A stretch of DNA of 63,193 nt, the filler included, from Reclinomonas americana ATCC 50394 (taxonomy: Eukaryota): NCBI GenBank assembly GCA_048213135.1. It is 13 parts of 13 records of this genome, joined end to end, with 100 filler letters (N's around TTAATTAATTAA, not from the genome) between each part and the next. Parts side by side here need not be neighbours in the genome. Positions count along the whole stretch, not along the records: positions 1,854 to 7,669 come from AFZH01021673.1; positions 7,770 to 10,369 come from AFZH01021674.1; positions 10,470 to 17,868 come from AFZH01021675.1; positions 17,969 to 20,140 come from AFZH01021676.1; positions 20,241 to 36,586 come from AFZH01021677.1; positions 36,687 to 37,994 come from AFZH01021678.1; positions 38,095 to 41,718 come from AFZH01021679.1; positions 41,819 to 46,913 come from AFZH01021680.1; 5 more parts are not named here. One strand, given 5' to 3'. Shown here one piece after another: positions 1,854 to 47,468 of the stretch (positions are counted from its first letter, which is position 1; each line of letters begins with the position of its first letter). The notes beneath the pieces are model-generated. The model had not been told where the DNA came from. It saw only the letters and a program-made list of their open reading frames with translations, and did no database searches. The translations under genes were made by a program, and so were the position numbers.

Positions 1854-3273
1854 TGTGACTTGACTGACATCTATTTTCTCATTTGTGTGTGTGCATGTGT
1901 AGTTGCGAGGTGTGCACGGCGGGCATTCGCGGCAAGTGTCCAGTGTGTCGCGCTGAGGTCCCGGCCGGAGTGCAGCTGCAGCTCAACAGGCCGCTGATGG
2001 ATCTCATGGAGCGCTTCCGCATGGTGGAGATTGGAGGAGGAGGAGGAGGGAGCACGCCGACACCCGCACCTCAGCAGCAGCAGCATCAGTCGCGGTCTGA
2101 CGATGGTGCCTCGTCATCATCCGCGGCCGCACCTGTGGTGGCTGGTGCAGAGGGCACAGCTGCTGCTGCAGCAGCTGGAGATGGTGAAGGGGCAGTGGCG
2201 GCAGCAGCAGGTGCAGCAGGAGCAGCAGCAGAGCCTCCGCCACCACCGGCGACTGCGGGAATGGTGCTGGAGGAGGGCGTGCTGGCGTGTGCGCGGTGTG
2301 GGGAGATGTCGTCGCCGGCGCATGGAGTGTATCGGCTGGCTGCGTGTGCGGGGCATGGCGTGCATGCGGCGTGCTTGGTGGCGGCGGTGCGGAGGCTGGT
2401 GGAGAGTCAGGATATGAGTGCGCAGCTCGAGTGTGGCGCCGGCGCATGCAATAGTCGTTGCGTGGAGGTGCCCGCCTGCTCGTTTTACTCCCCCCTCACC
2501 TGTCGCTCCTGTGCGCGCAGCTATACCGTTGATCATCGTGCAGCGCGCGTTGCGGTTCGCGGAGGAGACGGCGCTGCTGGATCAGTACGACGACTTTCTC
2601 AATCGGCAGTTCGCCTCGGGAGCGCGCATCACGCCGTGTCCGGGGGTGCGTGTCATGTGTCGATAACGTTCCTCCTCTGCGTCATGACGCAGGTTCCTCA
2701 TCTTGTGTGTGCGCGTCTCTCTCTCGCAGTGCGGCAGTTTTTGTCTGCCCGAGGATGCAATCGAGTTGGAGGCCGAGTGCATGTGTGGTGTCCATTTTTG
2801 CTTCAAGTGCGGACAAGAGTGGCGCAACCGGGGTCACCGCATGCCGTGTGGCAACGACGGCTGCGAGCCGTCCATCAACCAGCGCCTCGTGCTGTGCGAC
2901 GAACACGTTGCGTTTTTTTCGTTGCACACATTTTACATGTGCGCACACATATTCACGCGATGCTGTCGAACAGCGCGCTCTTCGACACGGTGTGCCGTCC
3001 ATGCGATTGTGCCCACACTGCAGTGCCCTGCTCGGTACGCTTGCCATCCGTGCGGCTTTTCACTCCCCCCGCATCATGATTTCTCACACCTGACTGTGAT
3101 TTTCGATTGCAGACTGCCACAACCTGGTGGAAAAGCACGTCAACTGCCCCCACTGCCACGGCAGATTCTGCATATCGTGCCTACGTGCGCCACGCAGCCC
3201 CGACGATAGGAATTGGTGCATGCACAATCGCCCATGCCTGGCGGCCCCCAGGCAGCGTCTCCTCGATCAGTGA
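1854..3273 (+). CDS. N-terminal RING + RBR (RING1-IBR-RING2) protein with the catalytic Cys substituted; 5' end lies in the gap
   Basis: CEVC...CPVCR..NRPLMDL RING; RING1 (CARC..YRLAAC.GH.VH.AC); IBR (CMCGVHFCFKC); RING2 spliced as MRLCPHCSALLDCHNLVEKHVNCPHCHGRFCISCL; ends CLAAPRQRLLDQ*. Confidence 0.8.
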
Positions 3274-3381
3274 GTGATGATGTCGCGCAGGTTGCGTCGC
3301 CCGTTGTCGCTAGTTTTTCCCCAGTCTTGTGCTGGCAACCAAATATAAAGCAGCCGCTAGCCGTTTCATTTTTTCACCTCC

Positions 3382-6207
3382 TCAATCATCGTCCTCCTCT
3401 ACGTATCCGTCGTATCCGCTCTCCACGGGGAAACCGGCCCCGCGTGGCAACATGGCCGCGCGCGCCAGCCGACCCGTCGGTTCCACTTCCGGCGTCGCCC
3501 CATCGATCGCCATCTCCGACTCCTCGTCTCCATCCGCTGGTACCTCCTCTACTGGCGCATGATAGCGCGGTGCTGCCGACAGCAGCAGCACCAGGTGCTT
3601 CAGCGACAGTTGCTCGGCCATGCGTTGTCCGCCCAGCACCGCAAACCGCTCCAGTGCCGCCGCGCTGCGCTGGAAGAGAACACGCAGGCACTCCTGGATC
3701 GCCGTCTTGCTCTCAGCGTCCAGCACGGTCTGCACACAGAGCTTCTACTCAGCCACGGTGGTCGACGGCGAGATTCACACACAAAGTAATTCTTGCCTGA
3801 CCTCTCTCATGGCGGCTCGTTCCAACGAACGTGCCATGTCCGTCAGCACCGTATTATTGGCACCCTCCTCCAGTCGCGTCACCAACGCCGAGTCGCGTGT
3901 GAGTCGATTCGTGTACGCTGCACGACGAGTGAGCTTCACGATAACAGCAGAAGCATCAATACTCCACACACACACACCTTGCACAAACTGGACCCACAAC
4001 GGTTGCACGATGCTCCACTCCGCCGTCTCAGCTGCGCTTTCAGCTGCCACGCGAGTTCCCCACACGAGAAACGCATCACAAGCCAACCACAACGCGAGAT
4101 GCTCTTCCTCCGTGAGCTCGCCCACCGCCGACTCGTACACAATTGCGTGCAGCGCCAAGCACGCCAAGTGTGCAGTCACCTGAGACGCACGTGCAGAGGT
4201 CAGCGCTGCTGCAGTAAGTACAGGCACTTCCAAATGCACCCGCCTCATCCCACGGGCCGAAACGATACTCGGGCGAGGCGAGTTTGCGCGCCAGGAACAC
4301 ACTTACTGCCGTGTGGCGATTGCGGAAGGTGCTGGGCGAGGCCGTCAGCACATTGTCCAAGATGCACAGGGCGCAGGCGGTCGGCTGATCTCGGGCAAAC
4401 GCCGCTTGCACAAACTCGGCGACGCGCAGGTGACCGTGAAAGGCGATGAAGCGCTCACACGCATCGGCGTCCGTTGTGAGTTGCATGAAGAACGGCAGCA
4501 GCAGCGCGAACCTGCGCGGCAAGTATCAGCCATCTCCATTCATACCTTTTGCGCGGTACACACATCAACAAACCCGTCGCCCTTGAACTGGTGCAGAATG
4601 AGATACGGCAGCAACTCGTCCACCTCGGTCGTCAACATGTCGCTCTCGTCGGAAAAGTACACGCTAAATATTCGCAGACAGGCGAGCGTGACATCGGGGT
4701 GCGGGTCTTGCTCGCCGCGATTGAGAGCATCACGCCGCTCGCGAAAGTAGTGCAGCAGCGAGGTCGCAGACTCTTGTAATCTGCGAAGCAGGAACTGCAA
4801 CTTCTCGGCCGGCAGCGTGGTCAGCGGTCCGTCGTCCACTGCACACGGAATGATGAGTTTCTTTTTCGGTGAGGACGCATGGCAGGCATGCAGGCACGCA
4901 CTGCACAGCTCGCGAATAAACGACTCCAGGATCTGGAAGCACACCGGCAACATCACGCGCGCCTCCTCCGTCATTCTCTCTTGCTCCAGCAATACGCGAA
5001 CCTCCACATGCGTCAGGTCGAGGGCCAGCGACGCAAACGTGCCGAGTTCCTTTGCATCTCGGAGAGATGATGATGACGCGTCAACAAACAGCGATTTCGT
5101 CAGCACCTCCTCGATCATCCACGCCGACCCGGCGTACTCCATCATGACAGACAGCAGTCGGAGTGCCGAGAGACGCTGCGGATGTTCTGCGGAGGAGAGA
5201 CACAGTGCGAGTGCACGTGAGGTCCAGGTGCCACACGCTCTCTCCACGCGCACGGTTACCTGCTCGACGAATGCTGGCGAGAACAGCGTAGAGTCCACGC
5301 CGGACTTGCCTCAGCCATTCCTGCACACACACACACACACACAGATACACATAAGCGTACTGACATCAACTTGAAGCGAGAGAAAGACCAAGAGGGGACG
5401 AACCGGTCGCGGATCATCGACACCAGCAGTGGCCAATGCCAGCGTCGCCGACAGCACGTCCACAGCCGCCATCTTGACCTCGCCACCGCTCTCTGCCTTG
5501 CTCAGCACCCCAGCCAGCACCGACGCCAGTCGCCGAACCTCTGCAACGCGCATCAGCGGAACAACAACGCACCAGGGAAGAGACAACTCACGATCCGCCT
5601 CCAGCCCAGCTCTCCCCTCCACGTGCTGCAGACACCGCGAGGCCACCTGCAACAGGCCAACAGGCACCACCTCCAGTCCCGACTCGACCACGCACAGCAT
5701 GGCGAGGCGCACCAGCAACGCCGACTGCTCCACTCGCGGCACCCACTGCAGTGCACACAACACCGCCATCTCCACAATGCTCTGTGTGCGCCAACACGCA
5801 GGCAACGCCACACACAGTGCCTCCACTGCTGCCTCTGCACTCTCCACCATCTCCGCCACCGCAGCACTGCTGCTCAGCACCTCTAATGCCACCTGCGCGT
5901 ACAGTTCATCCTTGCCTGCGGAACCTGCGCACTCGCTCTCTCGCATGAGAGAAGGAGGAGGAAAAGGGGAGGAGATGGCATGTATAACGCAACGCAGAAG
6001 AGAGAGGAGGAAACGCGGAGTCACACACTCCACTGCTCGTTGCACAGAGTCGACATCAGTGGAGGCGATCACTCGGGGCACGAGGAGCAGTCCGGCGAGC
6101 TTCTCTGTGTGTTGAGAGTGTCACTAGTGTGTGTGAAAGAGAGAAAGAGAGAGAGAGAAGAAACCTTCGTTGGTGGCGCCAGAGAGAAGGCGGAAGCATT
6201 GCTCCAT
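3382..6207 (-). CDS. Neurochondrin-like HEAT/ARM protein
   Basis: The spliced N-terminus MEQCFRLLSGATNEEKLAGLLLVPRVI...VTPRFLLSLLR matches the neurochondrin N-terminal pattern. Leucine-rich helical exons and an acidic C-terminus follow. Confidence 0.7.
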
Positions 6208-6522
6208 GAAAGGACTTTGAGAATTTTGTGACAGAAGAAAGGGACTTTTGAACTACGAACTTCGGCCTTTCTTTCTGCATGCATGCAACACGCCATTGTC
6301 ATCGTTTCACTGGCGGCAACAAAAAAAGAGAGACACGGAAGTGTACAACAGACAGCGGCGAAGTGGAAATACACAATCAGTTGGTGGGGCGGGTGCGTCG
6401 GCAAGGCAGCTGCAGGGCAAACCAACACATCCTGCAGGCGACCGACGCAGACGCCGCGGGCAAACATCAAGGAGTGACTTTGTACAGGGGGGAAAGTAGA
6501 GGAGAGGAGGAATAATACAGTC

Positions 6523-8745
<2,223 letters not shown>

Positions 8746-9360: not shown

Positions 9361-10369
9361 ATGAGCACAGCGGACGACGATGACGACGACAGCCATCGAA
9401 GAGGAGGCGCCACTGTCGCCAAGGACGATGATGATGACGACGAAGGGAGCGCACTGTTGCGCGCCAGCGAGTCACTGATGGAGGTGCCGCTGTGGTACCA
9501 CGCACAGCATCCGCCGCGACTGATGCAACAGAGTCGCGTGGCCGAGGGCGCCGTGTGGTCGCTCTCCTCCGATGCCGACATGCAGCGATGGCTGGTCGCT
9601 GGCTCCGACTCGGGCTTCACCGTGGTGGTCGACGTGCAGCGTGTCACCGCCGACAAGGCCGACGAGGGTACGTGTGCTTGTTTGCGCATTTGGCGCGCAA
9701 AGAATCGCGCGCACTGACTGAATCGTCTTCCTTTCGCCAGCGGCTGTGGTTGAGGTGCGCTCGCACACTGGCATCGTGTCGGGCATGTCTCACGTGCCTC
9801 GATCCGACTGCTTTGTGTCGGTGAGCGCCGATGGCTCAGTCGCGGCTGTCCGTGCGTCGACGACACCCCCGACGGTGGTCTCGCTGTCGCGACAGGGCTC
9901 GGGCGCCACCGCCTTTATGAGTGTCGTGGTGTGTCCGTCGGGAAGGCATGTGGCCACGGGCGGAGGCGACACGGTGGTGCGCGTGTATGGCCTGGAGGTG
10001 GATGAGTTGGGCGCGGAAGGGGTGATCCCGTCGGCCTCGGTTCGTCTGGGCCGACTGCTCGTCGAGCTTCGTGGGCACACGAAGGTGCGTTGTTTGTGCG
10101 CGGCCGTGCTGCATGCTGCTCTCCACTCACCGTGTCGCAGAGCGTGGAGGGGCTGGCGTTCTCCAACAATGGAACCATGCTGGCGTCGGTGTCGCGCGAT
10201 GGATCGTTGCGCTTGTGGAATGTTGGTGAGCCGGCGACGGCGCATCGCGATGTGCTCAACAGTGAGCCGCTGTCGCGCGTGGCGTGGTCGCCCGACTCGC
10301 GCCGTGTGGCTGTCACACACTTCATCTCGGGTCCGTCGGCTGTCGTCGTGTTCGACGTGGTCACCGGTC
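9361..10369 (+). CDS. WD40-repeat protein, 3' part lies in the gap
   Basis: SHTGIVSGM..CFVSVSADGSV; VATGGGDTVVRVY; LRGHTK|SVEGLAFSNNGTMLASVSRDGSLRLWNV; VAWSPDSRRVA. Confidence 0.85.
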
Positions 10370-10469
10370 NNNNNNNNNNNNNNNNNNNNNNNNNNNNNNN
10401 NNNNNNNNNNNNNTTAATTAATTAANNNNNNNNNNNNNNNNNNNNNNNNNNNNNNNNNNNNNNNNNNNN

Positions 10470-12764
10470 CCTGCCTTCCTGCCTTGGGCTGTGAGCTGAC
10501 TTTGTGTGTTCAGCAACTTGCGCATCATTCGTCACATGACGCGCGAGGAGGCCGTGGAGATTCTCACGCGTGTGGGAGCGGATAGTGGGCGCGCGCATCC
10601 GACGTTGGTGCCTGGATGCCGCGTGGAGTGCATCCGCGAAGTGGGCCCCATTCATGTCGGCGGTGTGTGCTTGTGTTGCTTTGCATGTTGGTTGTCCGCA
10701 GTCGCTTATCCGCGCACGCAGACCAAGGTACGCTGTGGGATCATGACGACTCGCCGCCGACTTGGTGCGTGCTCATATCACGGCTCTCGTGTCTTATGTC
10801 ATGTGTTAACTTTATTTGTGTGTGCGTGCGTGCGCAGCTACGTCACGTGGGATCGACAGGATTTGCAGACCGAGGCCACGCAGCCGATTCGCGCGCAACT
10901 GGCGGGCGCTCGCGCCGCCAGCGGCTACTGGTGCAACGACGCGTGAGTAGTCGTAGTAGCAGTCGCGAGATAGATGCGCATGTGCGTGTGCGTTCCGCGT
11001 GGCGACTCATGTTCTGTTTTATTGCCGTAGGGATTTGCGTGTGGTTTCACCGCCGGGTGAGGGTGCTAGTGCCGCTGGTCCCGGTCGTTTCTTGGCGAGC
11101 GGCTCGTCGGCGGCCGCTCCTCGAGTACCGGTGCGGTCGGTCGGTGCCCCCAGCGGCCAGACCTACCAGCAACTCAGCGACTACGCCGAGCACTTGCGCA
11201 ACAGCACCGGCAGTCGTGTGCGAGTGGTCGTTGCGTACGGCAACGTCCAAGTCGGCGGTATGTGGTCGACGCACATTTGTTATTTGCCTGCTGTGCACTT
11301 GTTATTGATTGTGGTTGGCAGATATCGGCAAGCTGCAGTTTGTCGACTACTTGCCGCCGGAGGACATGATTACGGAGGCTTACCCGCCACCATGGTTTGT
11401 GGTGCTTTGCAAGCAAGGTCTATATTCTGCGAGCTCACAATATTCCGTGAATTACAGCTACGTCACATTCGACCGCGAGCTCAATTCAACTGCCGAGGTT
11501 CCGCCAGCGCACGACTTGTACGACGTGAATCCGCCGCGTTCACGCGGAGCGTGGGTTCCTGTGGAGTTGCGCCGCGAAATTGTTCGATATTTTTTGATGC
11601 CGTGTTTTGATGCTCACATATAAGTGCAGGTGCCTGCAAGTGGAGAACTCGAGCCGCGCCCCACCGAACTCACCGCCGCCGCCCTCCTCATCGCGTGCGC
11701 GACCATCGCTCCCCGCCGGCGTGCAAGTGATGACCGACCAAAGTCTACAGTGTGTCGTCTGCACCGACCGCAGCGGCTCCGTCTACCGTCTGCAGTGCAC
11801 GCACGGAATACACGGCGAGTGCATTCGTGACTCCATTGGCCCTCTGGTGGCCTCGGACTCGCGTCATCCGCTCAAGTGCCAGCAGCGCGGATGCACCCAG
11901 GGTGAGTGGCTTCATTCGTGATTGAATTGAATCTCACCCTGCCATCTCACTGTTGGTCGCAGCGGTCCCGCTGGAGGTGGTGCACCATGCCGCCGTCGAG
12001 GGCGGCTTCGAGCCGGCCGCCGGACAGTACTTTGACCTGCTCAATCGTCAGTTTGTCATGAGTGGCAAGTCCAAGACGTGCCCGCGGGTGTGTTTCCACT
12101 GCTCCCTCTTGTCATCATTTCACGGCGCACTGCTCACGTTTTTTTCGTGCTTACAGTGCCGTGCATCCATCATGCCCGAGGATCCGAACCTGCGTCAGGT
12201 CACCTGCGCTCTCTGCAACACTCGGTGAGCATGAACTGCCGCCTCGTCCTCGTTGCTGGCGGTATCCTCACTCCCACACTCTGCGTCACAGTTTCTGCAT
12301 GCGCTGTCAGAGCCAGTGGCGGGATGCTGCCAACCAACAGTGGTGCGGCAACGATCAGTGTGACTCGGTCGGTCCCAACTCTCTGCTGCGCACGTGCGCC
12401 ACCAAGTCCATCTCCGGCCTTCCTGGCCAGGTGCCGATCATGCGTGCGTGCCCCTCGTGTCACTATGTGCAAGGTGTGGTGCACGACAGAGGACAATTTT
12501 GATTGTGCGTCCTCGTGTAGCTCACTCCTGTCACTGCAGAGCACTCTACGGCCTGCAAACATATGGCATGCCAGCAGTGCGGCGTCAATTACTGCTTCCG
12601 CTGTCTACTTCCACAGCGCAATGGCTTGTGGCAGTTTCGTTGACAAGAACCGCTGCTGTCATCGTCGTCCGTCCGTGTGCTAATCATTTTCCTCTCGCGC
12701 CAACAGGTGTGGTTCATTCCTCGACCCGTGCAATGTTGCACCTCGGCAAACCGTACCCGAATAA
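10470..12764 (+). CDS. RBR E3 ubiquitin ligase with at least two CPH/SH3-like modules; 5' end lies in the gap
   Basis: Modules LVPGCRVECIREVGPIHVGDQGTLW..YVTWDR and DYAEHLRNSTGSRVRVVVAYGNVQVGDIGKL..YVTFDR; RING1 (CVVC..YRLQCTHGIHGEC); IBR; RING2 MRACPSCHYVQEHSTACKHMACQQCGVNYCFRC; ends CNVAPRQTVPE*. Confidence 0.88.
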
Positions 12765-12962: not shown

Positions 12963-14563
12963 CTAGTAGAAGCCACCGCCAATTGCCCCGTATCGCCCGC
13001 GCCCGATGCCAGCAGCGCGACCTCGATCGTACAGCTGCGCAGAAATATGAGCGAGTCCACATACACACACACACACAAACGAGGGTGCCACATCATACGC
13101 AACGTCATAGAAACGCTGCACAGCACATGCATACGGTCAGTCGCACAATTAAACAAAACTCAAGAATCGCATCGCGCACGCAACATCGTCCTCGTCGTGT
13201 CGCCGCCTGCCCCCTCCCCCTCCACCCATGTGCACGGAACGCCAGTATTCGTCACGTCGCGGGGCAGAGACACACGATTCGCTGCCGCACCACGTCGAAC
13301 CCTCGCGGCGGCGCCAGCGCGATCCACATCGGAAGCAAAAGTCGGTGTCGCAGAGGCCGCAGCGACCGCGCGAGGCGCCGGGAAAGTCACTCATGCAGTA
13401 GCTCGAGCACTGCGTACAAGCGGAGGTCATTTCGGGAGAGAGAAACAGAGAGAAAACACACAGAGAGAGAGACGGAACCTGCGGGCACGCCACAATGTGC
13501 GACTGGTCAGCCCATGATTGGTTCAGCATGGCCTCGTACTCCTGCAGCAGCGCCTCTTCACCCGCTCGCAGCAGCGCATGCTGCACGGCGACCAGCGACA
13601 CGGCTTCGCAGAAACAACAACGACATAAGACGAAAAAAGCAACCGAACCAAACAGACAGCGCAGAACCACGCACGGATATCACACGAGCGATCGCCACAC
13701 TTGAGCTGCTCCGGGTGTGCCGAGTCCCTGTTGCTGGCCACCAACGCCTGCACCTTGTCCAACAAGCAGTGCGCATGGACCTCATGCTGACACGGCAGGC
13801 GGTAGCGCGGCTCATCGAGCGCCAACTCCTTGCAAATGCGACACTGGCCACTCTTTCCACGGTCAAGGAACTGCACACCGCTGTCGCCAAGCACCGGAAG
13901 CTCGCTCTCTGGCACCGACTGCCCCGGCCCACGACGCACCTGCGCGCATGCATGGCCACAGTAAGCGTGCGCGCGCGCGACAAGCCAAGTCGAGCGGACA
14001 GTACCTCTCCCGGCGGAGGCTGTGCAGGACCTGCCTCACCGCCCTCTGGTCGCACAGGAGCCGCACGAGGCACAGCGACTACAACAGGACCCTGCGGCTG
14101 TGCCTGCACAGGAGGCTGAGGCTGCGCAGGCTGAGAAGGCTGAGGAGGAGGAGGAGGCGACGGATCGACGCCTGCTGGACCGGCCCCCGAGGCCTCCACA
14201 ATGCCAAGTCGCACGGCCTCCCGTTGCACGCGCTTCAGCTGCACTATGAGATCAATCAGCGGCTGGTTCACCTCAAAGACGCCATCGACCGCGGCCTGCA
14301 CTCGCGCGCTGCTGCCTCTGCACAGAGGACACATGCTCTCCGCGGTCAGCGACTGTGAGCATTGACGACACCTGTGTGTGCACACAGAGTAGTGTCAGTG
14401 AGCAGGCACAGGCACAGGCAGAGAGACAGACAGAGAGACACAACATGCAGTGTCCCTGTCCGCAGCGGAGAAACACGGGCATTTCCGACTCTTGCTCGTC
14501 GCTGTAGTTCTGGAAGCACACAGGGCACTGTGCAAGGTTCAGCGCCTCCTCCAATACGTTCAT
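12963..14563 (-). CDS. N-terminal RING + RING1 + IBR protein lacking RING2
   Basis: MNVLEEALNLAQCPVCFQNY..CGQGH..CPLCR..NQPLIDL; RING1 CRIC..YRLPCQHEVHAHC; IBR CGLCDTDFCFRC; then a short Gly/Arg tail. The 3' exons are less certain. Confidence 0.75.
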
Positions 14564-29585: not shown

Positions 29586-29706
29586 TCAATCACACACACG
29601 CACACACGCACACGCACGTCCTCAACTTTGAAGCAATAATACAAGAGCGGGTGTTCGTTCGCTGCATCAAACAATTTTGCCACTTATATTTTTCTCGTCT
29701 CGCCAT

Positions 29707-32951: not shown

Positions 32952-33346
32952 CTTCTCGTTGTCTGCGGGTATGCGTTTCACACACACACAGAAAGAGAGA
33001 CACGCCCACAGAGGCACACACAGCAGCGCGCGTGTCTGTCTGAGTTTTGAGCGCCGGACGACAGTGTGTGTGCGGACGGAGCTCGCGCGCTGGACGTGTT
33101 CCATTTGTTGCTGCAACTGCAGTGTGAGTGCCGTGTTTGTGTGCGTGGTGTCTCTGTCTGTGCGTGCGTGTGTGTGTGCGCTCTGCTGTCTGTGCCTGTG
33201 TGACTTGCGTGTGCATGAGAGTGTGCCACGTAATGTGTGTTAGTGTCCGCCTGCCTCCTATTCTCACTTTTCTCTCTCTCGCATTCGCATTTTCCAGAGG
33301 CGTGCTGTGTGTGCGCGTGTGTGCGTGTGTGGAGAGAAAGTCACAA

Positions 33347-35358: not shown

Positions 35359-35456
35359 GGCGTTCCTCATGATGGTTCACGAATACACTCAAGAAACTCG
35401 CGTTGTGTTCTTGCTGCCCGTTTTCCCCTGCATGTGTATGCATGTCGCCGACTGTT

Positions 35457-37994
35457 CTACTCTGCCACCATATCCGGCACATTCTGTGCGCCCTGTGCGT
35501 GGACGCACGAGGCGTAGCAGGAGAGTTCTCGTCCGTGGTGCAAGGCCCTGTGCAGAGGAACGCAAAAGATACGGCGCCGTTGGTTCGCTGCATGTGTGAA
35601 AGCACCTTGATGTGCACGCAACATGTCGCAGCGCCATGTGTCGGCCACCTCGGGGAACGACTCCTCGAACACGTTGGAGGCTGCGAGTCGTGAGAGTTTA
35701 GGCACTGGGAAAAATAAAGTGTGTAGCTGCCGCTGACACAAACACACACACGCACCGTCACACTTGTCGGAACCGGCGTCGTAGCGCGACCCGCCACCCA
35801 CCAGCGTGGAGCCGGTCGGGCACGAGACGCGCACAATACCAGCGGTGTCGACCTTTTCGCGAACCTACAGTTACAGCACGCTGGTTAGCACAATCGCTGC
35901 ACTTCGTGCGCAGTGAGGCGCAGCGGGTGCCGTGGATCTCACAATTTCGATCTTGCGCTCAGTCGGGAACTTGGCGCAGCGCGAGTAGCACGACGAGGTG
36001 TACGGGGACGAGCCTGAAAGGGGCACATGACAGCAAGTCAGGGCGAATCATGCGTGACAGCATCGTGTGTGCAGTTGAGAATAAGCATACCTGAGATTCC
36101 GACCTTGCACTGCCAGCCGTTGCCGTCGTCGCTAGGACGAGACTCCTGGAAGGCCACGCGTTCAGGCGACTCGCACGTGTGCATGTCTTCAGGCCCAATG
36201 GAGATGCCACCACCGAGAAGCTGTACCGAAGTGAACAAGAGTATAGAAAAAAGCAAACAAAGAAATGTAGCCGTCGCACCTGATATCCAGTCGGGCAGTT
36301 GGCAAGGCTCTCGCCATTGTCGTTCGCATCGTCTCGTGTGGTAACGGCAACTGTTCCAACCGGCAAACGGCAGCAGCGAGCAAAGCATGACCACTTGCCA
36401 CGCTTCACACCCCTGTACAAAACATGCAAGCAGCGAGTCAGTAGTCGGCATCGACAGCTCGCTATCGGAAATGACGCAACGTCTTGCATTGCCATCCGTT
36501 TTCGTACGGGCGACTCAGTCGCAACATGGATCTAGATGCACGTGCAGGAGGAAATGAGTGATCTCACGGTGGAGGGCGGTTTGCAANNNNNNNNNNNNNN
36601 NNNNNNNNNNNNNNNNNNNNNNNNNNNNNNTTAATTAATTAANNNNNNNNNNNNNNNNNNNNNNNNNNNNNNNNNNNNNNNNNNNNTCTCCCTTCGGTCC
36701 AGCCGGTCCGTTGTCACCCTTGGCGCCATTCTGTAGTAGATGCAAACATGAGCTGGGGAGCGCACTCACGTCAAGCCAGCACTATAACGCACCTTGCCAT
36801 CAGCGCCCTTGTCGCCCTTGTCACCCTTCGGTCCAGCTGGTCCGTTGTCGCCCTTGTCACCCTTGTCTCCCTTGGCTCCGTTCTGCATCGCACAGTGTGA
36901 GTCAATAAACAAGATTGAGGATGTGAGCTCGATGCCACTCGCCTTGCCATCAGCTCCGTTGTTTCCCTTGTCTCCCTTGTCACCCTTGTCACCCTTGTCT
37001 CCCTTGTCGCCCTTGGCTCCGTTCTGCGTCACACACATGCATGAGTCGATGAGCAAGACTTAGCGTGTGACTGTTGTCTCTCACCTTGCCATCGGCTCCG
37101 TTGTTTCCCTTGTCACCCTTGTCTCCCTTGTCTCCCTTGGCTCCGTTCTGCATCACACGCAAGCGTGAGTCAACCACCAGGGCTGAGCGTGTGACTGTTG
37201 TCTCTCACCTTGCCATCAGCTCCGTTGTTTCCCTTGTCTCCCTTGTCACCCTTTGGCCCGGCCGGTCCAGTCTGCAATGCAAGGGCATAGAAATGCATCA
37301 ATAACAAAGCAAGACTGAACGTGCGAGCGTGTTGTCTCTCACCTTGCCATCAGCTCCGTTGTTTCCCTTGTCTCCCTTGTCTCCCTTGTCACCCTTCGGT
37401 CCCTTGGAGCCCTTGTCCCCCTTCGGTCCCTTGGAGCCCTTGTCTCCCTTCTGCCCCTTGGAGCCCTTCTGCCCCTTGGAGCCCTTCTGCCCCTTGGAAC
37501 CCCTCTGTCCCTTGGAACCTTTGTTGCCCTTGGAGCCTTTGTTGCCTTTGGAACCGCGGTCGCCCTGCGGCCCCATGGGCAAGAACACACGAAGTCAGCG
37601 CGCGACGTCGATGCGGTGTGTGGACACAACACGTCCGTGTGGCGTACCTTGTTGTTGGTCTCTGCCAGATTCTCGGATTGATCTTCGTCGTCCTCCTCGA
37701 TGTTCTCGCTGTCGCTGACAAGCTCGTCCATTTGTTCCTGAAGATCTTCTGTCACGCACACGAGTGGTGTGCAAGTCAAGCACTGGCCTTGCACGGGCAA
37801 CTGATACTCGCTCCTCACCTTCCGCTGCATCCTCGTCCATGACGAGTTCTTGCTCACCAGTCACATCCTCAGAGAGGTCAAACCAGTCATCTTGGGCGAC
37901 GAGGACGTCAACGGTGGCTGGCTCGGAAACTGCGCATGCGCCGACATCAGTGATCAAGGGGGTTGCATGGCCTTCTGCACTGCACGAACACGCA
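35457..37994 (-). CDS. Collagen-like (Gly-X-Y) protein with a duplicated Cys-containing C-terminal module; 5' end lies in the gap
   Basis: Acidic region, then (GSK/GQK/GDK/GPK)n exons. After the gap are two CPTG...LGGG...ES.P....W.C modules. Assigning both sides of the 36587 gap to one gene is inferred from strand and position. Confidence 0.8.
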
Positions 37995-38334
37995 NNNNNN
38001 NNNNNNNNNNNNNNNNNNNNNNNNNNNNNNNNNNNNNNTTAATTAATTAANNNNNNNNNNNNNNNNNNNNNNNNNNNNNNNNNNNNNNNNNNNNCGCGAG
38101 CGGCAGACACGGGCCAGTGAGAGAGAGAGAGTTCCCGGCAATTTTGTACAATCTCGTGTTCTTGATCACGTTCATGGTCAACTGCAAGCGCGTAGCGACG
38201 ACGATCACTGCGTGTGGCTGTGCACACCGAGTCGCCAATACAGCAGACGAGACGATCAAGCGGGACGGCCCACAGCTGCACCTCGGTCTGGATCGCGGAA
38301 ATTTCAGCGCCATCAATCTTCCGTCGCACACACA

Positions 38335-41300
38335 ATGAGCGCGCCCGAGCCGCCGGCTGTTCCCGTGCGGGCTCCTCCTCCACTGCCGCCACCTCGCACA
38401 GCCAAACCCGTGGACGCCCCGAAGGAGCCGATAGCAAGTGCTGCCGAACAGCCAGTGGCAGCCACCGGACCACACCCACTGGGAGCGTGTGTGTGGAGTC
38501 TCATGGATATCATTACTCGGGCGTATCACTCCGCCGCCTCACCGACTTCGACCGGCGCACAACACGAGTTGTTGCACCAGGCCACGGAAGAGATACAGCG
38601 AGTGGCGCATGAATTGCGCATGGCGTCGCAACAGCTGCCGGCGAGCGCCGAGTGCGACAAGGCCATCATCTCTCAGGTGCTGTACTACATGGACGAGTGC
38701 ATGCGCCGCAATCGCACGTTCATCTCAAGTATGGCCACCGAAGCAGGTGTGTATGTGTGTGCGTGTGTGTGTTCGCTTCCATGCATTCTTCCTGTGAGAG
38801 ATTGAGTGTGTTCCATTGTGTTGCGTGTGTGTATGTATGTGTGTGTGTGTGTGTCTCTCTCTCTCTCTCTCCGTGACTCTCCTCTTGTGTGCGCTTTGTG
38901 CAACATCTCTGTTGTGTGAGCTGCACCACTCTGTGATGAGCACGGGGAAATGTCGGCTTGTCGTCCGGTCATCTGGAGTGACTTGGTGTTTGTTTTCCCC
39001 TTCTTGTTCTCCAGCTGCTGCGGCGGCGTCTGCTCCCGTGCTGGCTCCCCCGCCCAGCACTCGCTTTGGTACTGGCACACAGTCAGGTCAGCGGATGTTC
39101 GAGAGAGTTCTGTCTTGTTATGTGTGAGTTCTAACTGTGTGTTTGCTGCGAAGCTGGCACCTCCGGGTCGTCGCCCGTGCCCGACACTGGTTCGGTGGGT
39201 CGCACACTGTCGAATGGACAAGGTGCGTCTGCATGTGACTGACGAGTCTTTCATTTTATTGTCTGCTGATTCATGTGTTTAGGTGGATCGGCGCCTGCTG
39301 CGGGAGGTTTTTTTGCGATTCGAGTTCTGCTGTGTGTGGTTTCATTCGTTACTGACTGTCTCCGTAGGCCCGACCAGCGTCGCACCACTGCCTGGGTACC
39401 CTGATGGTGAGCCGCCGATGTCTCTGTCTCGCTCGCAGCCATTCGCTTACTTTTTTCCGGCGCAGACCCTCTAAATCGCAATGGCGCCAACGTCACACCT
39501 GGTAATGTGTCGATGAGGAACGGCGCAACGACTGCTGATGCTGCAATTGTCTCCATGGCGTCGGCTGCCATCTCTGTGGAGGGCATGGCTTCCAATCGCG
39601 CGGCACCCCCAAACGCCTCCAATGGCAGCGGTGCGTTGCGCTGGCTGCTGGTTGCGTTTTCGGCTAGCCTGTTGAATAATGTCGTGTGTCGCACAGATGC
39701 TGCGCCGCGACCCACGAACAAGGGTCTTCTGGTCCCACCGCTACCGCCAGCCACCTCTGTCAGCCAGCCCGTGGACCCTCGCGCTCAACCGCTGCAGCAA
39801 CCACCCGGCGATCAACGACGAGTGCAACGTGTGCCGACGGAGTCCGAACCCTGCCCCGTGTCTGGCCTGCCGAATCTCGGGTACGCACCCCCTCATGAGT
39901 GTCGCCGTCCCTACATGCGTTGAAATCGTGTTTCGTGTAGGAATACGTGCTTCATCAATTCGCTTCTGGAGTGTCTGCGCTTCACTCCAACCTTCCGCCA
40001 GCGCTTGGAGCGCTTTGTGACCGAAGGCAGACGGGAACTGGTGTTGGACTCGTTGCCGGCATCGTCGATCCATGCACTGCGCGTCTTGGTGGTTCGTGGT
40101 GAACTGGCTTGCATAGTTTTCCTGCATGTCGTCACCCTCGTCATATCTATCGCAGTGCTTGCACAACTTGTTCACGGCGCTTGACTCGCGCGACAACGAC
40201 ACTGTGCGGTTGCGCGTGGAGGTAGCTACCGTCTCTGCAGCTCTTCTGTCAAGTATCTTGTATTATTCACTGGAACTCGATTGCGATGCGCAGGAGCTGT
40301 TAGTGCAGACGGGCATTGCCGAAGGTCACGGTTCACACTTCCGTCTGTTTGGGTCGCGTATTGAGCAGGACGATCCTGGATGGTTCCTGACCGAGGTCTG
40401 TGCACGTCCACGCAGCACTTCTCGTGATGCAGCTGTCGCCTAAATCGCACTCTCTCTTGTTCGCCGTAGCACATTGTGCCAGCGACGGCGGGTGGGTGAC
40501 TGCGGTCACAATGTGTGTGCTTGGCAACTCGAAAGCTGATTCCCGTGTTGTTGCACAGTGTTCCCTCAAGCTGAGTTGCAGCACGTGTTCCAGTGCTCCG
40601 TCGAATTCCGCTCGACGTGTATAGTTACTGCTCTCCTGTGCCGTGTGCTGTACTCAACAAGATGTTGACGCACGCCTTTCACTGCGGCTGTCACAGAACT
40701 GCATGCGTGAACCTCGAGTCGATGCACAGCCGCAGCTCGAGGTTGTGATTGATGCGATGCAGTTGCGGCAGCCCGGGGCCATCCACGACGCGTTGCGAGC
40801 GTCCATGGTGGGAGACCGACAAATGGTCAAGAATGGAATTACGTGCCGCACGCCCAACTGCAAGTTCCAAGGCTCCAAGGTGTGTTTCGATCCATTCATT
40901 CAATCACCCTTCTCATTTCCTCTCTTTGCCATTGACTTCATGCTTCTTCTCGTTTCCCTGCGAAGGTGGACTCGATCGAGGAGTCCGTGTGGCGACTGCC
41001 GGAGAGCGCGCTGATTGTGCGCGTCGATTGGCGCTCACTGGGGAACAAGTCCTCCAAAGACTTCCCGTTGCAGCTAGACCACCAGTTCCCCTTTAATGTG
41101 GGTGGTGACCGCGTTCTGCTATCGTTGCAGTCGTTGATTGTGAGTTGACGAAGAATCGAGAAGTGTGACTCGCTGTTCGTGCTTGTTACTCATAAAGAAC
41201 AACAGCTACACTCGGGACACAGCACGGATCGCGGCCACTACATGATGATGACGCAACTACAGTGGCCAGTTGCGTTGCTGCCCTTGTCGATGAAGCAAGC

Positions 41301-41482
41301 ACATTCCGACATCACATGTGCAGCACATTGGTCCGGTGTGGGTCCTCTTCGACGACAGTGCGGCGTCATTCGCCGAAGCCGCTGCCGTGCTCCGTCTGAC
41401 ACAGGGCAGCGGCCTACGCGGCAACTGGCGACCAATCATGGTCTTCTATACCATCAACCGTGAGGCTGCGCCGCCGACCTGA
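38335..41482 (+). CDS. USP deubiquitinase with a long N-terminal extension
   Basis: VSGLPNLG|NTCFINSLLECLRF; EQDDPG; HSGHSTDRGHYM; WVLFDDS; RPIMVFY. Confidence 0.87.
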
Positions 41483-41556: not shown

Positions 41557-43456
41557 ATGGGGAGCAGTCAGTCGCGTCCGACCTCATCCTCTGCCTCCGG
41601 CCCAGCCACCACGGTGCCTGTCTACACAAGCAACGCAGCGGCTCTGGGTGCCACCTCCGCAGCCATTGCTCAGCGCCGTCTCGCCGCTCATCCTCCTCCT
41701 CAGCAACAACAACAACAANNNNNNNNNNNNNNNNNNNNNNNNNNNNNNNNNNNNNNNNNNNNTTAATTAATTAANNNNNNNNNNNNNNNNNNNNNNNNNN
41801 NNNNNNNNNNNNNNNNNNCAGATGGTGCCAGGCACACGAGTTCGTGCGGCGCGACCAGTGGGCCCACTCCGAGTTGGAGGTGTGTCGTTCACTCACTTGT
41901 TTCTTGCTTGTATTTGTTGAGCACCAAAAGATCTGTTTTTTTCTCGTGCAGATCTCGGCTCGTTCTACTGGCGTGATCCGGAACGTGGTGCAAGGTGCGT
42001 CCTGTGCAGTCGCTTGTTTTGGTCACTCGTCCTTTGTGTGTGTGATGTCCCTCGTTCCCCTCACACGTGTCGGGAGCAGCTACGTGAGCTGGGATCGCGA
42101 CGACCTCGGTTCGATGAGTTTCTTCCCGTTCGAGGCCCTGGTCAATGGATGCCCGAACCGCCCATCGTCGGGCTACTGGGTGTTTGATGCGTGAGTGTGA
42201 TTCGGCCGTGCACTTTGACAGCGCATCGATGCTGACGCATTGTTTCATGCAGCGATATCGAGGTGGTGGCACCAACCGGTGCGTCTCGCATTGTTCTCTC
42301 ACCACTATGTTTTCGCTCACGTACACACCTCCGCTGGGTGCAGGCGAAGGTGCGGCGACTCGCTCGGAATCAATGGTGGTGGTGCCCGACACGGCCACCG
42401 GCCTCAAGTGCGAAAACTGCATGGACGACCAGAACCCAGTGACGTACCGTCTGCCGTGTGGGCACGGCTTCTGTGCCGAGTGGTGCGAAGCAGATTGAGT
42501 GCGTTTGCGGTCTCCTCGTGCGCCGACTGACTCGGGTGTGTGCTTCTGTAGTCTCGAGGAGTCACTGAAGGCGCACGTGCGTCAACAGCTGCCATCGGCG
42601 CTGCTGTGTGTGAAGAAGGGATGCAAGACGGGTGAGTGTTTTTTCTTCTTCTTCTTCTTGTATGTCGCAGGTTGTTCACATAGAGGTGCAGAGGTTCCGG
42701 TGCCGACGATTCAACACGCGGCGATTGCACGCAACTTCCGCGATGTGGAGCGCGGCTACTACGAGTTGTTGAGTCAACAGTTTGTGGCGGCGCACGTGAA
42801 GCGATGCCCGGGAGTTGCGCGCAGCTGCTCTCTCTCTCTCTCTGTGGTCATAGACACACTGCCTGACATGCAAAAAAACCCGCCACCCGCAGTGCCAGGC
42901 CATGTGCATGCCGGAGAACACCAACGACCGCGATGTGGTGTGCGGCACGTGCCACACTCGCTTCTGCGTGAGCTGTGAGCTACGTTGGCTCACGATGCCC
43001 GGCTTCCCGTCGTGCGGCAATGTGGACTGCACGCGTGCCGGGCCCAACCTCATGCTGGCCTACTGCGGCACCAAAGTTGCGTGTCGCAGGGGGAGGGAGA
43101 GGGCAACAATGGCGGAGCTGTCTTGCTGAACAATCAAAAAAATTTGCAGTTCACGTATGGCATTGCCGAGGAGCACGGTCAGGTGCCAGTGATGCGAGCG
43201 TGCCCGCGGTGTTTCACTATTCAAGGTGCAGTGTGCATTTGTCTTGCGCGCCCGTTAGCGATATATTGCGCGGTGCTCACGATGAGTGGCAGAGCACGCC
43301 GAGGCCTGCAAGCACATGAAGTGCCAGAAGTGCCTCTGCGAGTACTGTTTCCGGTGCTTGTCGGTGCGTGAGAACGATCAGACCCCGTGGCCAGCCATTT
43401 GTGGTCACTGGAACACGCCGTGCCCGATTGCGCCGCGGCAAGTGGTGCCGGAGTGA
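41557..43456 (+). CDS. RBR E3 ligase with a CPH/SH3-like module and MGSSQS N-terminus, spanning a gap
   Basis: MVPGTRVRAARPVGPLRVGDLG..SYVSWDR; RING1 CENC..YRLPCGHGFCAEC; IBR; RING2 MRACPRCFTIQEHAEACKHMKCQKCLCEYCFRC; ends CPIAPRQVVPE*. The link to the first exon across the gap is inferred. Confidence 0.85.
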
Positions 43457-45074: not shown

Positions 45075-45197
45075 CTTCCGATGGAAAAACTGTAAGTGTT
45101 TTCTTTTTTGTAGAGGACAACCAAACTCGGTCTGGGACGCGCGGGACGACCAGATTTGTCGCATCGCAATTTTGAGTCATTTCTTTGTGCATTGATC

Positions 45198-46224
45198 ATG
45201 TGGCCGCGGTGAGTCTCGCTGCTTGCTGTCCACTGGCTCACAACACGCTGGCGCTATCCCTTTCCTTCCTCCCTCCCTCCCTCTCTCTCTGTATTGAGAG
45301 GATGTCCGCGATCCTGTGTTTCTCCGCACGCACACTCGTGGCATTCACTCTCAATGATGCACACGCACACTCTCAACAGAGTGCATATGCGTGCGAGTTT
45401 GGCTCTGCGTGTGCTTGTCTGTGTCTGCGTGCGCTTTGTTGTTGTTGTTGTTGTTTGCACATGTCAGCAATTTCCGTGTTCTGTTTGCACTCTAGCTCTC
45501 CCCTCTCCGCTCCGCCACCTCCCACTCCCTCCATGCGCTGCGCCATCGCGCACACTCTTCTCCTGTTGTCTGCCATGCATTTCCATGGCGACTTATTGTC
45601 CGGCACTTGTGCACTCACTCACGCACACACAGCTTGAGGGTGGAATTGAGGAACTGGCAGAACACCGACACCATGACGTTGGTCAGCAACGAGACCACGA
45701 CATGGACGGCCACAGTCATCCCGGTGAGCTCTATTTTTTGTGAAGAAACACACACGCATATGTTTCGTGTCAGCAGCTGACCATGTTGTTGTTGTTGTTG
45801 TCCAGCCGCGTAACTCGCTGCTGGAGGGCTTCCCGCTCAAGCTGCGCGTGCAGTTCCCGGACTCGTACCCGCGCCAGCCTCCAGAGGTTCATGACCCTTT
45901 GACAAAGAGAAGAAAACCGCTCTCTCCTGTGTTGCTGATTCTCGCTGATCGCAGTTGTACTTTACGCCGGCGATCTACCACCCGAACTGCGACCAAAGCG
46001 ACGGTCGGCTTGTGCTGAAGAAGCTGACGGGCGAGGGCTCGGTCAACGCCGAGTACGACGTGCAAATGCCGCTCAAGGAGATTTTCACGGCAGTGGTGGC
46101 GGCCATTGATCGCCCCGAGCTCGAGTGCGCCTGCGATCCCGACATCCGCAACGCCTTCGAGAACGACTTTGATGGCGCCTACTTCCCGCAGCTCATGGAG
46201 AGCGCCATGCGTCACTCGGAGTAA
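45198..46224 (+). CDS. Divergent UBC-fold E2 (UBE2L3-like features) without the canonical catalytic Cys
   Basis: MWPR|LRVELRNWQ...TTTWTATVIP|PRNSLLEGFPLKLRVQFPDSYPRQPPE|LYFTPAIYHPNCDQSDGRLVL...IDRPELE. The first exon is tentative. Confidence 0.8.
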
Positions 46225-46637
46225 TCTCTCGCAACTCTCTCTGTCTGTTTGTCTTTTTTTGCTTTTTTTCTTCTTTGCGCGCCTTTTTTGCGTGTCACGT
46301 GCACAGCGATGGGCCCTCATTAAAAAAAAAACAAAGCACTCCCACAATCTTCGTCCGCCGGGTTCCAAAGCCCATAAAACACGCCGACATGCAGTGGACA
46401 GGAATGCCACACGAAATTTCGTCGGGCATTGCACTCACACGGAACCCGCCTGCACGAGAAGGTCAGTGCGTGTGGCGTGGTGTGCATTCTTCTCTCTATA
46501 TGTGTGTCTCCACCCGTGCGTGTGTGTGTGCGCGCGTGTGTGTGCGCGAATGTAACCTATCGTCCGCTGCATCATTCCTCACTCTCACACTCTCTTGTGC
46601 ACGCACGCAGTGGTGACGCAGAGGCACAGACGCAAAC

Positions 46638-46913
46638 ATGAGTGAGCTGCTGAGAACATGGGCGTCGCATTTGCTCGATGCGCACCAGTCCGAGGACCCC
46701 ACCGTACAGTACATTCCGCCACGAATGCGAGAGGCACTCATGCGCGCCAGAGCCAAGGTAACGTTGTCGGGCACACAGAGACCACAAGAGACGTGCGACT
46801 CACAACAGTGTGTGTGTTTTGCTAACAGCCGGACGCTGACATGGGTCCACTATTTCGACTCCACATGAAGGACATCAAGCTGTGCCCCAACTGTCCGCGG
46901 GTTGACGAGCACA
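46638..46913 (+). CDS. Hypothetical protein, 5' fragment
   Basis: MSELLRTWASHLL...RARAK|PDADMGPLFRLHMKDIKLCPNCPRVDEH, joined by a GTAACG...CTAACAG intron; runs into the gap. Confidence 0.4.
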
Positions 46914-47013
46914 NNNNNNNNNNNNNNNNNNNNNNNNNNNNNNNNNNNNNNNNNNNNTTAATTAATTAANNNNNNNNNNNNNNNNNNNNNNNNNNNNNNN
47001 NNNNNNNNNNNNN

Positions 47014-47468
47014 GTGCGTGCGTGCGTGCGTGCGTGTGTGACATGCCCACTCAAAAAGGTGTGTGTCTACATTGCGTGATTGTGTGGTGTCAGGAACGCA
47101 ACGAATACACTTCGGCATACTCCTTGTTGGAGAACACAGAGCGGTAGTGCGAGTCCACAATGTCTTCCAGACGATCGATTTGCCTGCAGCCACACATGAG
47201 AAGACTACACAACAGCACCACCACACGAAAGGTTAATTATATACTCACCGCGTGATAAACCCCCAGCCCTGCATGCGTGTTGAGGAGAGAGGGAGAGGAG
47301 AGAGACGCGCACGCACACACACAGACACACACAAGCAAGCACACATCGCCATGAGTGAATGCGATCTCTTCATGTCGTCACGCGTGTGAGTGTGTGTTTT
47401 TGTGTAACCTCTTCATACGACTCAAACTGGAGATTGGCCGCATTGACCAGCGGTGCAGTCTGTGCCAT
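47014..47468 (-). CDS. Cullin (CUL1-like) N-terminal exons; remainder lies in the gap
   Basis: Three small exons splice to MAQTAPLVNAANLQFESYEE|GWGFITR|QIDRLEDIVDSHYRSVFSNKEYAEVYS, resembling cullin helix 1-2 (E.GW..I...I.KL......F....Y..LY). Confidence 0.6.

Follow-up and report, generated by a model that had tools for sequence, protein, structure and literature searches.

A putative cluster of divergent ubiquitin-system genes, with RBR-like and USP families around a UBA1-type E1, in Reclinomonas americana

A stretch of 63,193 bases (about 57% G+C) from the eukaryote Reclinomonas americana ATCC 50394, hereafter the window, was found to carry a dense group of genes related to the ubiquitin system. 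Of some 21 gene loci lying between positions 1854 and 46224 (about 45 kb), about 14 belong to families of ubiquitin-activating (E1), ubiquitin-conjugating (E2), ubiquitin-ligase (E3) or deubiquitinating (DUB) enzymes. The group comprises one very divergent RBR-like ligase family with seven loci, designated A to G, and one family of ubiquitin-specific proteases (USPs) with four, placed around an orphan E1 and an E2-fold gene devoid of the catalytic cysteine; a UBE2H-type E2 gene lies in the same interval. We regard it as very probable that this is a genuine linked cluster built by local duplication. It appears to have grown through tandem and segmental duplication and through exon shuffling, in a compact and intron-rich genome. 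The fuller reading, in which the locus is a lineage-specific, expanded set of genes for attaching and removing a modifier (writers and erasers) around an orphan paralogue of the E1, is given a probability of about 0.5; whether the members act in one common pathway is, taken by itself, an evenly balanced question. An earlier inspection of the same DNA (the original prediction) had proposed a dense cluster of ubiquitin-related genes, and the count of loci, on contigs found to be ordered wherever a join could be checked, bears this out.

Thirteen contigs make up the window. They are separated by 12 identical linkers of 100 bases, every one of which has the composition N44-TTAATTAATTAA-N44. Such linkers are artificial spacers with stops in all six frames and always of one length, uninformative on gap size, and the concern voiced in the original prediction that contig order might be arbitrary was for this reason justified. 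The order nevertheless proved real at three of the 12 joins and was contradicted at none, since three genes continue over their linkers with the correct order and strand. The UBE2H gene crosses the linker at 7670-7769 on the minus strand: UQ_con positions 35-73 were matched in 7769-8290, positions 66-94 in 6934-7668 and positions 96-137 in 6650-7036, in agreement with PDB matches covering residues 39-85 and 95-142 of UBE2H. USP4 has its Cys box at the end of contig 4 and its His box at the start of contig 5. An EGF-repeat gene is present on both sides of the linker at 20141-20240. The core of the cluster, with the arrangement USP2(-)/RBR D(-)/E1(+)/RBR E(-)/RBR F(+), lies on a single N-free contig of 16.3 kb (20241-36586), so that the gap-free USP/E1/RBR/RBR block described previously was recovered with RBR D as a further member. 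The fixed length of the linkers and the 96% identity of loci D and E could in principle mean that contigs were joined arbitrarily, or that collapsed or duplicated haplotypes inflate the number of copies. The genes that run across linkers and the unbroken core contig make this explanation very improbable, and largely refute it; D and E, in particular, are not haplotigs, because their N-terminal halves differ and the E1 gene lies between them.

Stop-to-stop open reading frames (ORFs) were scanned with Pfam. The scan covered all 374 ORFs of at least 95 aa in the window, as well as 267 of the 491 short ORFs (40-94 aa) in 1854-47600, namely those with a crude coding score of at least 3, the other 224 being left out. 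Cut-offs, in bits, were 23.9 for UCH, 24.3 for IBR and 27 for both IBR_1 and UQ_con. Gene models were obtained with a custom gene finder that relies on codon usage and splice sites; it was trained on Pfam-supported exons and retrained after a first round in which neighbouring genes had been merged. Introns were found to be short, mostly 55-100 nt, with donors of the GTGCGT/GTGAGT type and CAG acceptors.

In the E1 gene, the ThiF domain of the IAD, the FCCH, the 4HB, the ThiF domain of the AAD, the SCCH and the UFD were recognized on separate exons. The SCCH match was the strongest (135.3 bits, E 4.6e-39), followed by the AAD ThiF matches at 26814-27738 (42.5 and 84.9 bits); the IAD ThiF at 25209-26027 was weak (26.5 and 17.2 bits), the 4HB scored 25.3 bits, and the FCCH (23.0 bits) and UFD (19.9 bits) both fell beneath their Pfam cut-offs. 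The spliced model encodes 1037 aa in about 17 exons with the frame intact, and its residues 10-965 are collinear with residues 7-940 of a UBA1-type protein of 1010 aa. Two ThiF domains in one chain, together with FCCH, 4HB, an SCCH holding the catalytic Cys and a C-terminal UFD, assign the protein to the UBA1-type E1s, and the E1 reported in the original prediction can now be described as full-length, with all six domains. The motifs GAGALGCE and TDMDxIExSNLNRQFLFR (NLNRQFLFR) are intact, as is the catalytic P-V-C-T-K-K-Y-F-P, which aligns with PLCTLKNFP. Because its catalytic motifs are intact, the E1 looks catalytically competent.

Its sequence is nonetheless far from that of other E1s. Overall identity to UBA1-type proteins is 31-32%, as against 44% between two unrelated proteins of this type; the corresponding values are 45% and 67.5% for the AAD core, and 28% and 53% for the UFD, the domain that recruits the E2. 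Identities in the AAD core and UFD are also beneath those of P0007, another divergent E1. In comparisons with PDB, the SCCH exon favoured UBA1 (82 bits, against 43 for UBA6) and the AAD exon favoured UBA6 (77 bits, against 57-66 for UBA1). A word-based protein search with the SCCH exon returned seven matches, the best of which were 28-41% identical; a metagenome scan with the same exon yielded four loci, 28-38% identical, on contigs of 3.3-3.4 kb that are too short for synteny. Viral contigs yielded no relatives. Unlike the E1, the UBE2H exons in this window show good conservation (60.5 bits over 49 residues). Divergence of the one next to conservation of the other favours a paralogue over a globally fast-evolving proteome, and these comparisons lead us to consider the E1 somewhat more probably a paralogue than the housekeeping UBA1.

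The seven RBR-like loci are mutually similar. Each contains a RING1-type C3HC4 pattern, a helix segment of conserved sequence (..Y.D.LNRQF..) and an IBR. The IBR ends in FC..C...W....CG[NS]..C in every one of the six copies that were aligned, among them that of A. Their number matches the six RBR genes and one chimera counted in the original prediction. RING2 is complete, with the pattern ACKH[MV]xC..C....CFRC, in loci B, E and G, which show the order RING1-IBR-RING2; in A and F the spacing of RING2 is altered. At the expected catalytic place, B, D, E and G carry a Cys-x-His motif (ACKH[MV]xC), from which a thioester-forming catalytic Cys in RING2 is predicted. Locus B combines N-terminal modules of about 80 aa with RING1, IBR and a RING2 carrying ACKHMAC..C....CFRC; it gave RING matches of 20.3 and 19.9 bits, and its RING2 exon produced the best IBR_1 score of the family (26.2 bits, for a cut-off of 27). 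The 5′ end of B probably lies in the preceding gap. Locus E has two or three such modules at the N-terminus, then RING1, IBR and a complete RING2 (ACKHVRC ... CGTEFCFRC), and is convergent with the E1 gene. Locus G starts with MGSSQSRP and continues with an N-terminal module, RING1, IBR and RING2 (ACKHMKC..C....CFRC), spanning the linker at 41719-41818 (IBR_1 18.4 bits, IBR 17.5 bits). Locus A, whose 5′ end is cut by a linker, is paralogous to C, E and F; it contains RING1 (GVYRL..C.GHGVHAAC), the helix region, an IBR (17.5 bits, below 24.3) and a RING2-like Cys cluster at 3100-3270 (an IBR match of 16.3 bits). An extra N-terminal RING precedes RING1 and IBR in locus C (IBR 18.7 bits, zf-RING_2 19.1 bits). 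It also does so in locus F, in which RING1, helix region and IBR are followed by a long linker segment and a RING2-like cluster (CPNC...YCDCVC....FCFAC); F gave IBR scores of 19.7 and 14.4 bits, and Atlas placed it in IBR/RBR clusters at 0.86, a value to be taken as a lead only. Linkers lie within or adjoining B, G and USP4, a pattern expected where repeats break an assembly.

Compared singly with PDB, the RBR exons gave nothing significant. A profile made from the IBR pieces of six paralogues, by contrast, matched the IBR of RNF31/HOIP (E 3e-4) and that of ARIH1 (E 4e-3), and 11 of the 14 chains listed at E ≤ 1 belong to RBR ligases. A word-based protein search with a piece of locus D found no homologues, and phmmer with a 175-aa piece of F found a single protein at E ≤ 0.001 among 1,835,955,588 representatives. 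These near-orphan results, and the identities of the E1, bear out the notion of divergent, lineage-specific members put forward in the original prediction. The sole relative of the F piece (P0008) has 883 aa and consists of five near-identical RING-IBR repeats followed by one RING2-like end; a repeated RBR arrangement of this kind is unusual and may be an artefact of assembly. The module of about 80 aa (G.RVECIR.VGP..VGD.GTLW....CYV.WD) occurs in one to three copies in B, E and G, and its exons gave nothing credible against Pfam at E ≤ 5; it may resemble the MIB/HERC2 domain. It was located at 10500-10943, 11031-11550, 30968-32300 (minus strand) and 41819-42190, with introns at conserved positions.

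Cys and His boxes, the hallmarks used for the USPs, are readable in all four genes, and USP1, USP2 and USP3 are mutually related. In USP1 a long Pro/Gln-rich N-terminus precedes a USP domain with both boxes (UCH 33.2 and 28.2 bits). USP2 starts with MGSFCSKPGD, continues with a polyGln/coiled N-terminal region and also holds both boxes (38.5 and 24.4 bits). USP3 remained below the UCH cut-off (20.5 bits); its Cys box lies at 39941-40000 and its His box, HSGHSTDRGHY, in an ORF at 41149-41460 that is absent from the gene model. USP4 had no Pfam match among the scanned ORFs and was assigned on its motifs alone: the Cys box (17831-17867) is 67-79% identical to those of USP1-3 over 18-21 aa, the His box (GHY...W..FDD) is readable from 17970, and the part between them is missing at the linker (17869-17968). 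Thus, the four mutually related USPs of the original prediction stand, two above the Pfam cut-off, one below it and one by similarity to its paralogues.

Signs of local duplication are clearest around the E1 gene, which is flanked by two copies of one segment (23472-24470 and 29602-30819; blastn, 876 bp at 96.2% and 129 bp at 88%). The N-terminal half of locus D resembles the N-terminal region of USP2, with 77% DNA identity over 736 bp and 63% identity in protein, and both proteins begin with MGS[FL]CSKPGD (MGSLCSKPGD in D and MGSFCSKPGD in USP2). Judging from these alignments, D is a chimeric truncated copy, with a USP2-type N-terminus in front of an RBR core that shares 96% identity with the core of E. 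A USP-RBR chimera had been announced in the original prediction; D is indeed chimeric, but the part shared with USP2 is its non-catalytic N-terminal region and includes no USP domain. Long CAG/CAA tracts encoding polyGln occur at 22900-23250 and 24565-24850, within the N-terminal regions common to USP2 and D; on the opposite strand or in other frames they read as poly-Cys or poly-Ala.

The start of D (25086, minus strand) and that of the E1 gene (25213, plus strand) face each other head to head, and the 126 bp between them (25087-25212) suggest a candidate bidirectional promoter shared by the two genes. Starts of the MGS- type are found in USP2, D and G (MGSSQS in the last). We take these to fit the consensus for N-myristoylation, and the Cys present in two of them presumably fits palmitoylation. 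An acylation-type N-terminus in both USP2 and D suggests that a writer and an eraser are sent to the same membrane site. The idea of membrane tagging raised earlier thereby gains some basis in three MGS- starts. The head-to-head E1/D pair and the N-terminus common to a USP and an RBR-like protein point to local co-evolution and to possible co-regulation. The term operon-like, used for the cluster at first, does not fit: its genes contain introns, are apparently monocistronic and occupy both strands.

Several observations, assembled here and in the two paragraphs that follow, weigh against a dedicated pathway. Some of them concern the E2s. Both exons compared for the E2 gene on the minus strand had their best PDB matches with UBE2H, yeast E2-24 kDa and relatives (60.5 and 53-61 bits), and UBE2K and UBE2D scored about 25 bits lower; by these matches it is an ordinary conserved UBE2H/Ubc8 orthologue. 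UBE2H is known as the E2 of the CTLH/GID ligase, and not as a partner of RBR enzymes in the way of UBE2L3-type E2s, and the gene may be a bystander in the cluster. The other E2-fold gene has three exons and encodes about 134 aa or more. Its UQ_con scores (20.9 and 23.7 bits) were below the cut-off, and Atlas assigned it to E2 clusters at 0.94, with 26 of 30 matches in the UQ_con set. The UBC fold and the HPN motif are recognizable. In the alignment with Cdc34, in which FTPAIYHPNCDQSDGRLVLKKL stands against FTPAIYHPNVY-RDGRLCISIL, the catalytic Cys about eight residues after HPN is missing and Val aligns with the active-site Cys of Cdc34; a Cys is found directly after the HPN motif. Because Val replaces the catalytic Cys, the product was not classed as an active E2 and would be a UEV-like protein, at best a non-canonical E2. 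Both E2-fold genes of the original prediction were therefore found, one of them an ordinary UBE2H and the other lacking the catalytic Cys. A gene for ubiquitin or a ubiquitin-like modifier (Ubl) had not been seen before, and a search for a linked one came out empty as well: none of the ORFs scanned with Pfam matched, and regular expressions with ubiquitin motifs gave one irrelevant match and nothing relevant. A short or divergent Ubl exon could have escaped, because 224 short ORFs lay outside the Pfam scan. The complete cascade claimed originally is not upheld, given that no Ubl was found, that the sole plausible E2 is a UBE2H and not of UBE2L3 type, that the second E2-fold protein lacks the Cys and that one ligase is truncated.

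Genes for neurochondrin, a WD40 protein, an EGF-repeat protein and a collagen-like protein interrupt the cluster. If paralogues are collapsed, about five of the roughly 12 distinct families in the interval belong to the ubiquitin system; by a rough binomial estimate with an assumed background of 4%, this is unlikely to occur by chance in one window, and is not negligible across a scan of many windows. Per codon, no other gene of the cluster scores as well for codon usage as the E1 gene, as would be expected of a well-expressed housekeeping gene; this comparison is partly circular in that E1 exons seeded the training. An exon of the neurochondrin gene (4543-5310, minus strand; Pfam 58.6 bits) had no word-level homologues among 5.8 billion proteins, which likewise do not include the window's own proteins. 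The organism thus appears to be unannotated and its lineage poorly sampled, and the divergence of the E1 could partly be an effect of lineage, not paralogy. An alternative would be coincident tandem arrays, in which RBR-like and USP families expanded within a duplication-prone region beside a fast-evolving housekeeping UBA1 and UBE2H, and formed no dedicated pathway. Paralogues are expected to be adjacent, the D/E duplication and the exchange of an N-terminus reveal a duplication hotspot, the UBE2H is ordinary, the E1 retains all standard domains and motifs and has the best codon score, sparse sampling inflates apparent divergence, chance co-location of about five families is not negligible over a large scan, and neither a Ubl nor a dedicated active E2 was found. 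We consider this account rather unlikely, though to be taken seriously, in view of AAD core and UFD identities that lie far beneath those between unrelated UBA1-type proteins, and beneath those of P0007, while the UBE2H exons of the same window are well conserved. It also has to accommodate a second, cluster-specific E2-fold gene, an N-terminal module common to USP and RBR, and the head-to-head starts of E1 and D.

The ligases themselves show weaknesses. Every IBR or RING match in Pfam was beneath the gathering cut-off, no RING2-like ORF was found downstream in locus C, and D lacks a stretch of 231 bp containing the last RING2 exon of E and has several small indels relative to E. The gene models, moreover, are uncertain: the gene finder was crude and in places wrong, having missed the exon with the His box of USP3 and retained several in-frame introns, so that the models are approximate. 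Taken together with the altered RING2 spacing in A and F and with low codon-usage scores of the RBR-like genes (in F, for example, 16 bits over 367 codons), these defects might indicate a decaying array, most RBR-like copies and some USP copies being pseudogenes or fragments left by repeated duplication. Such decay is improbable, considering that long open exons are retained in all seven RBR-like loci, that B, E and G keep the full RING1-IBR-RING2, that both boxes persist in all four USPs and that the frame of the E1 is intact over about 17 exons. In addition, the six aligned IBR copies, at 29-35% identity to the reference copy, all retain the invariant Cys and Trp positions, which argues for selection.

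If the locus is indeed a lineage-specific cluster of writers and erasers, the E1 would activate ubiquitin or a Ubl encoded elsewhere, and the modifier would pass to an E2 outside the divergent set, for which the neighbouring UBE2H and general E2s are candidates; a role as cofactor or regulator might be left to the Cys-less E2-like protein. The RBR-like proteins B, E and G would then transfer the modifier via a thioester to targets chosen by the modules of about 80 aa or by lipid anchors, and the four USPs would reverse the modification. A more radical variant, which we hold to be highly doubtful, is a self-contained, membrane-directed conjugation system that dispenses with a conventional E2 and is made up of the orphan E1, the Cys-less E2-fold protein, the RBR-like ligases and acylated USPs. 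In it the E2-fold protein would either be a non-covalent adaptor that presents the E1-bound modifier directly to the RBR Cys, or have a displaced active site in the Cys right after HPN. Removal of the mark at those membranes would fall to the matching acylated USPs, and duplication, domain swaps and orphan sequences would reflect an arms-race role in defence or host-parasite conflict.

For the writer/eraser cluster with its own E1 paralogue, the closest functional analogues would be the vertebrate ISG15 and FAT10 pathways. The former consists of UBA7, UBE2L6, HERC5/ARIH1 and USP18, the latter of UBA6 and USE1. These systems likewise have a lineage-restricted UBA1 paralogue that keeps the entire two-ThiF/SCCH/UFD domain set, with a UFD that has diverged, and they involve a dedicated eraser of the USP class and an RBR ligase; PDB scoring also sets the cluster E1 between UBA1 and UBA6. 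Their genes, however, are not known to be clustered, and their Ubl and dedicated, active E2 are known. In the present cluster the search for a Ubl was negative, the dedicated E2-fold gene is without the Cys, and E3 and DUB genes are multiplied in tandem. With canonical RBR ligases (HOIP/RNF31, ARIH1/HHARI, parkin) the family shares the order of RING1, IBR and RING2, the Cys-x-His in the RING2 of B, E and G, the match of its IBR profile to those of RNF31 and ARIH1, and the assignment by Atlas to IBR/RBR clusters. It departs from them in the marginal level of similarity, in the W..CG[NS]..C end of the IBR in the six aligned copies and in its accessory parts, which are the modules of about 80 aa, an extra RING (C and F) and MGS- starts (D and G). 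UEV proteins (Mms2/UEV1 and the UEV of TSG101) resemble the Cys-less protein in having a UBC fold without the active-site Cys; the cluster protein differs in keeping HPN and a Cys after it, and in aligning best with the region of the acidic-loop insertion in Cdc34.

A likeness to prokaryotic defence loci had also been suggested. In E1-E2-DUB operons such as Bil, CBASS Cap2/Cap3 and that of Caldiarchaeum, activating, conjugating-fold and deconjugating enzymes are linked too, and in this the analogy holds; beyond linkage nothing supports it. Those operons are co-directional; their E1 is a small enzyme of the MoeB/ThiF type, their protease is of the JAB/JAMM type, and a Ubl gene usually lies next to them. 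The present locus, by contrast, has a UBA1-type E1 of 1037 aa, USPs, RBR-like E3s and spliceosomal introns, extends over both strands and yielded no Ubl. Of co-directional genes, a JAB-type DUB and an adjacent Ubl, the marks of a prokaryote-type operon, none was found in it. Plant RBR subfamilies offer another parallel, in that RBR genes have multiplied in tandem within a lineage; tandem-expanded plant RBR genes reportedly figure in Marin's surveys. We know of no report of E1, USP or E2-fold genes within such plant arrays, and to our knowledge eukaryotic E1, E2, E3 and DUB genes are normally scattered. No description of a eukaryotic E1/RBR/USP cluster was found in the full-text literature covered, subscription journals being outside that coverage.

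A compact cluster of this kind would be a rare natural grouping that hints at which writer, eraser and activator work together. Should the E1 be a true paralogue, the locus would be an independent case of a new Ubl-type pathway derived from UBA1, beside UBA6 and UBA7, with candidate partners at hand. Should it not be, the locus would still be a clear case of tandem expansion and exon shuffling, and would still show an N-terminus, predicted to be acylated, that is common to a ligase and a deubiquitinase. The value of the cluster hinges on the presence of a separate housekeeping UBA1 in the genome and on co-expression of the members. The features of the window are listed in Table 1.

Table 1. 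Positions of genes and linkers along the window, with the evidence for each assignment.
Feature	Position	Strand	Evidence or remark
RBR-like locus A	1854-3270	+	Pfam, paralogy, gene model
RBR-like locus B	10536-12640	+	Pfam, motif regex, paralogy, gene model
RBR-like locus C	13149-14563	-	Pfam, gene model
RBR-like locus D	23557-25086	-	Duplication, ORFs, gene model
RBR-like locus E	29793-32845	-	Motif regex, paralogy, ORFs, gene model, zf-RING_2 17.0 bits
RBR-like locus F	33347-35358	+	Pfam, ORFs, Atlas, deep search
RBR-like locus G	41557-43453	+	Pfam, motif regex, paralogy, gene model
USP1	15091-17012	+	Pfam UCH, gene model
USP4	17232-18729	+	Cys/His-box motifs
USP2	21282-23375	-	Pfam UCH, gene model
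USP3	38503-41482	+	Pfam UCH under cut-off, motifs
E1, UBA1-type	25213-29585	+	Pfam, tblastn, spliced model
UBE2H/Ubc8-type E2	~6602-8290	-	UQ_con, PDB matches
E2-fold gene without catalytic Cys	45673-46224	+	UQ_con under cut-off, Cdc34 alignment, Atlas
Neurochondrin	3382-5946	-	Interspersed, unrelated to ubiquitin
WD40 protein	9361-10368	+	Interspersed, unrelated to ubiquitin
EGF-repeat protein	19083-21096	+	Interspersed, unrelated to ubiquitin
Collagen-like protein	36689-37993	-	Interspersed, unrelated to ubiquitin
Three further gene models	within 1854-46224		No assigned family
ARP4/BAF53-like, WD40, EcKL kinase, condensin II subunit and FAD oxidoreductase genes	47-63 kb		
Linkers 1-6	1754-1853, 7670-7769, 10370-10469, 17869-17968, 20141-20240, 36587-36686		
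Linkers 7-12	37995-38094, 41719-41818, 46914-47013, 52915-53014, 58333-58432, 60683-60782		

Beyond the cluster, no ubiquitin-system family was found in the Pfam scan of 47-63 kb. A Pfam actin match at 47765-49635 (plus strand) corresponds to an actin-related protein and not to conventional actin, the best PDB matches being Actin-like protein 6A/BAF53 and Arp7/Arp4. The start of a cullin gene had been placed near 46638-46913 in the original prediction, and this assignment had to be dropped: no cullin match was obtained in any of the 374 long or 267 shorter ORFs, nor, at E ≤ 5, in the ORF at 46617-46865. The small gene that starts at this place (46638-46913, plus strand) begins with MSELLRTW..., and its second exon runs up to the contig edge, where it ends with a CPNC motif. 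This gene gave no cullin signal, only a weak match to MSL2-CXC (E 0.017).

The collagen-like gene contains many G-x-y repeats (GDKGDKGNNGADGK units), with Pfam Collagen scores of up to 66 bits. It has internal tandem repeats of about 77% DNA identity and runs off both ends of its small contig. A long poly-purine/poly-pyrimidine tract (6971-7427 and 7771-8134) lies beside and within the UBE2H locus. Translated, it gives poly-Phe/Ser from one strand and poly-Lys/Glu from the other, and it misled the gene finder, causing antisense "genes" and an inflated UBE2H model. Finally, (TG)n microsatellites are common in introns and intergenic DNA across the window.

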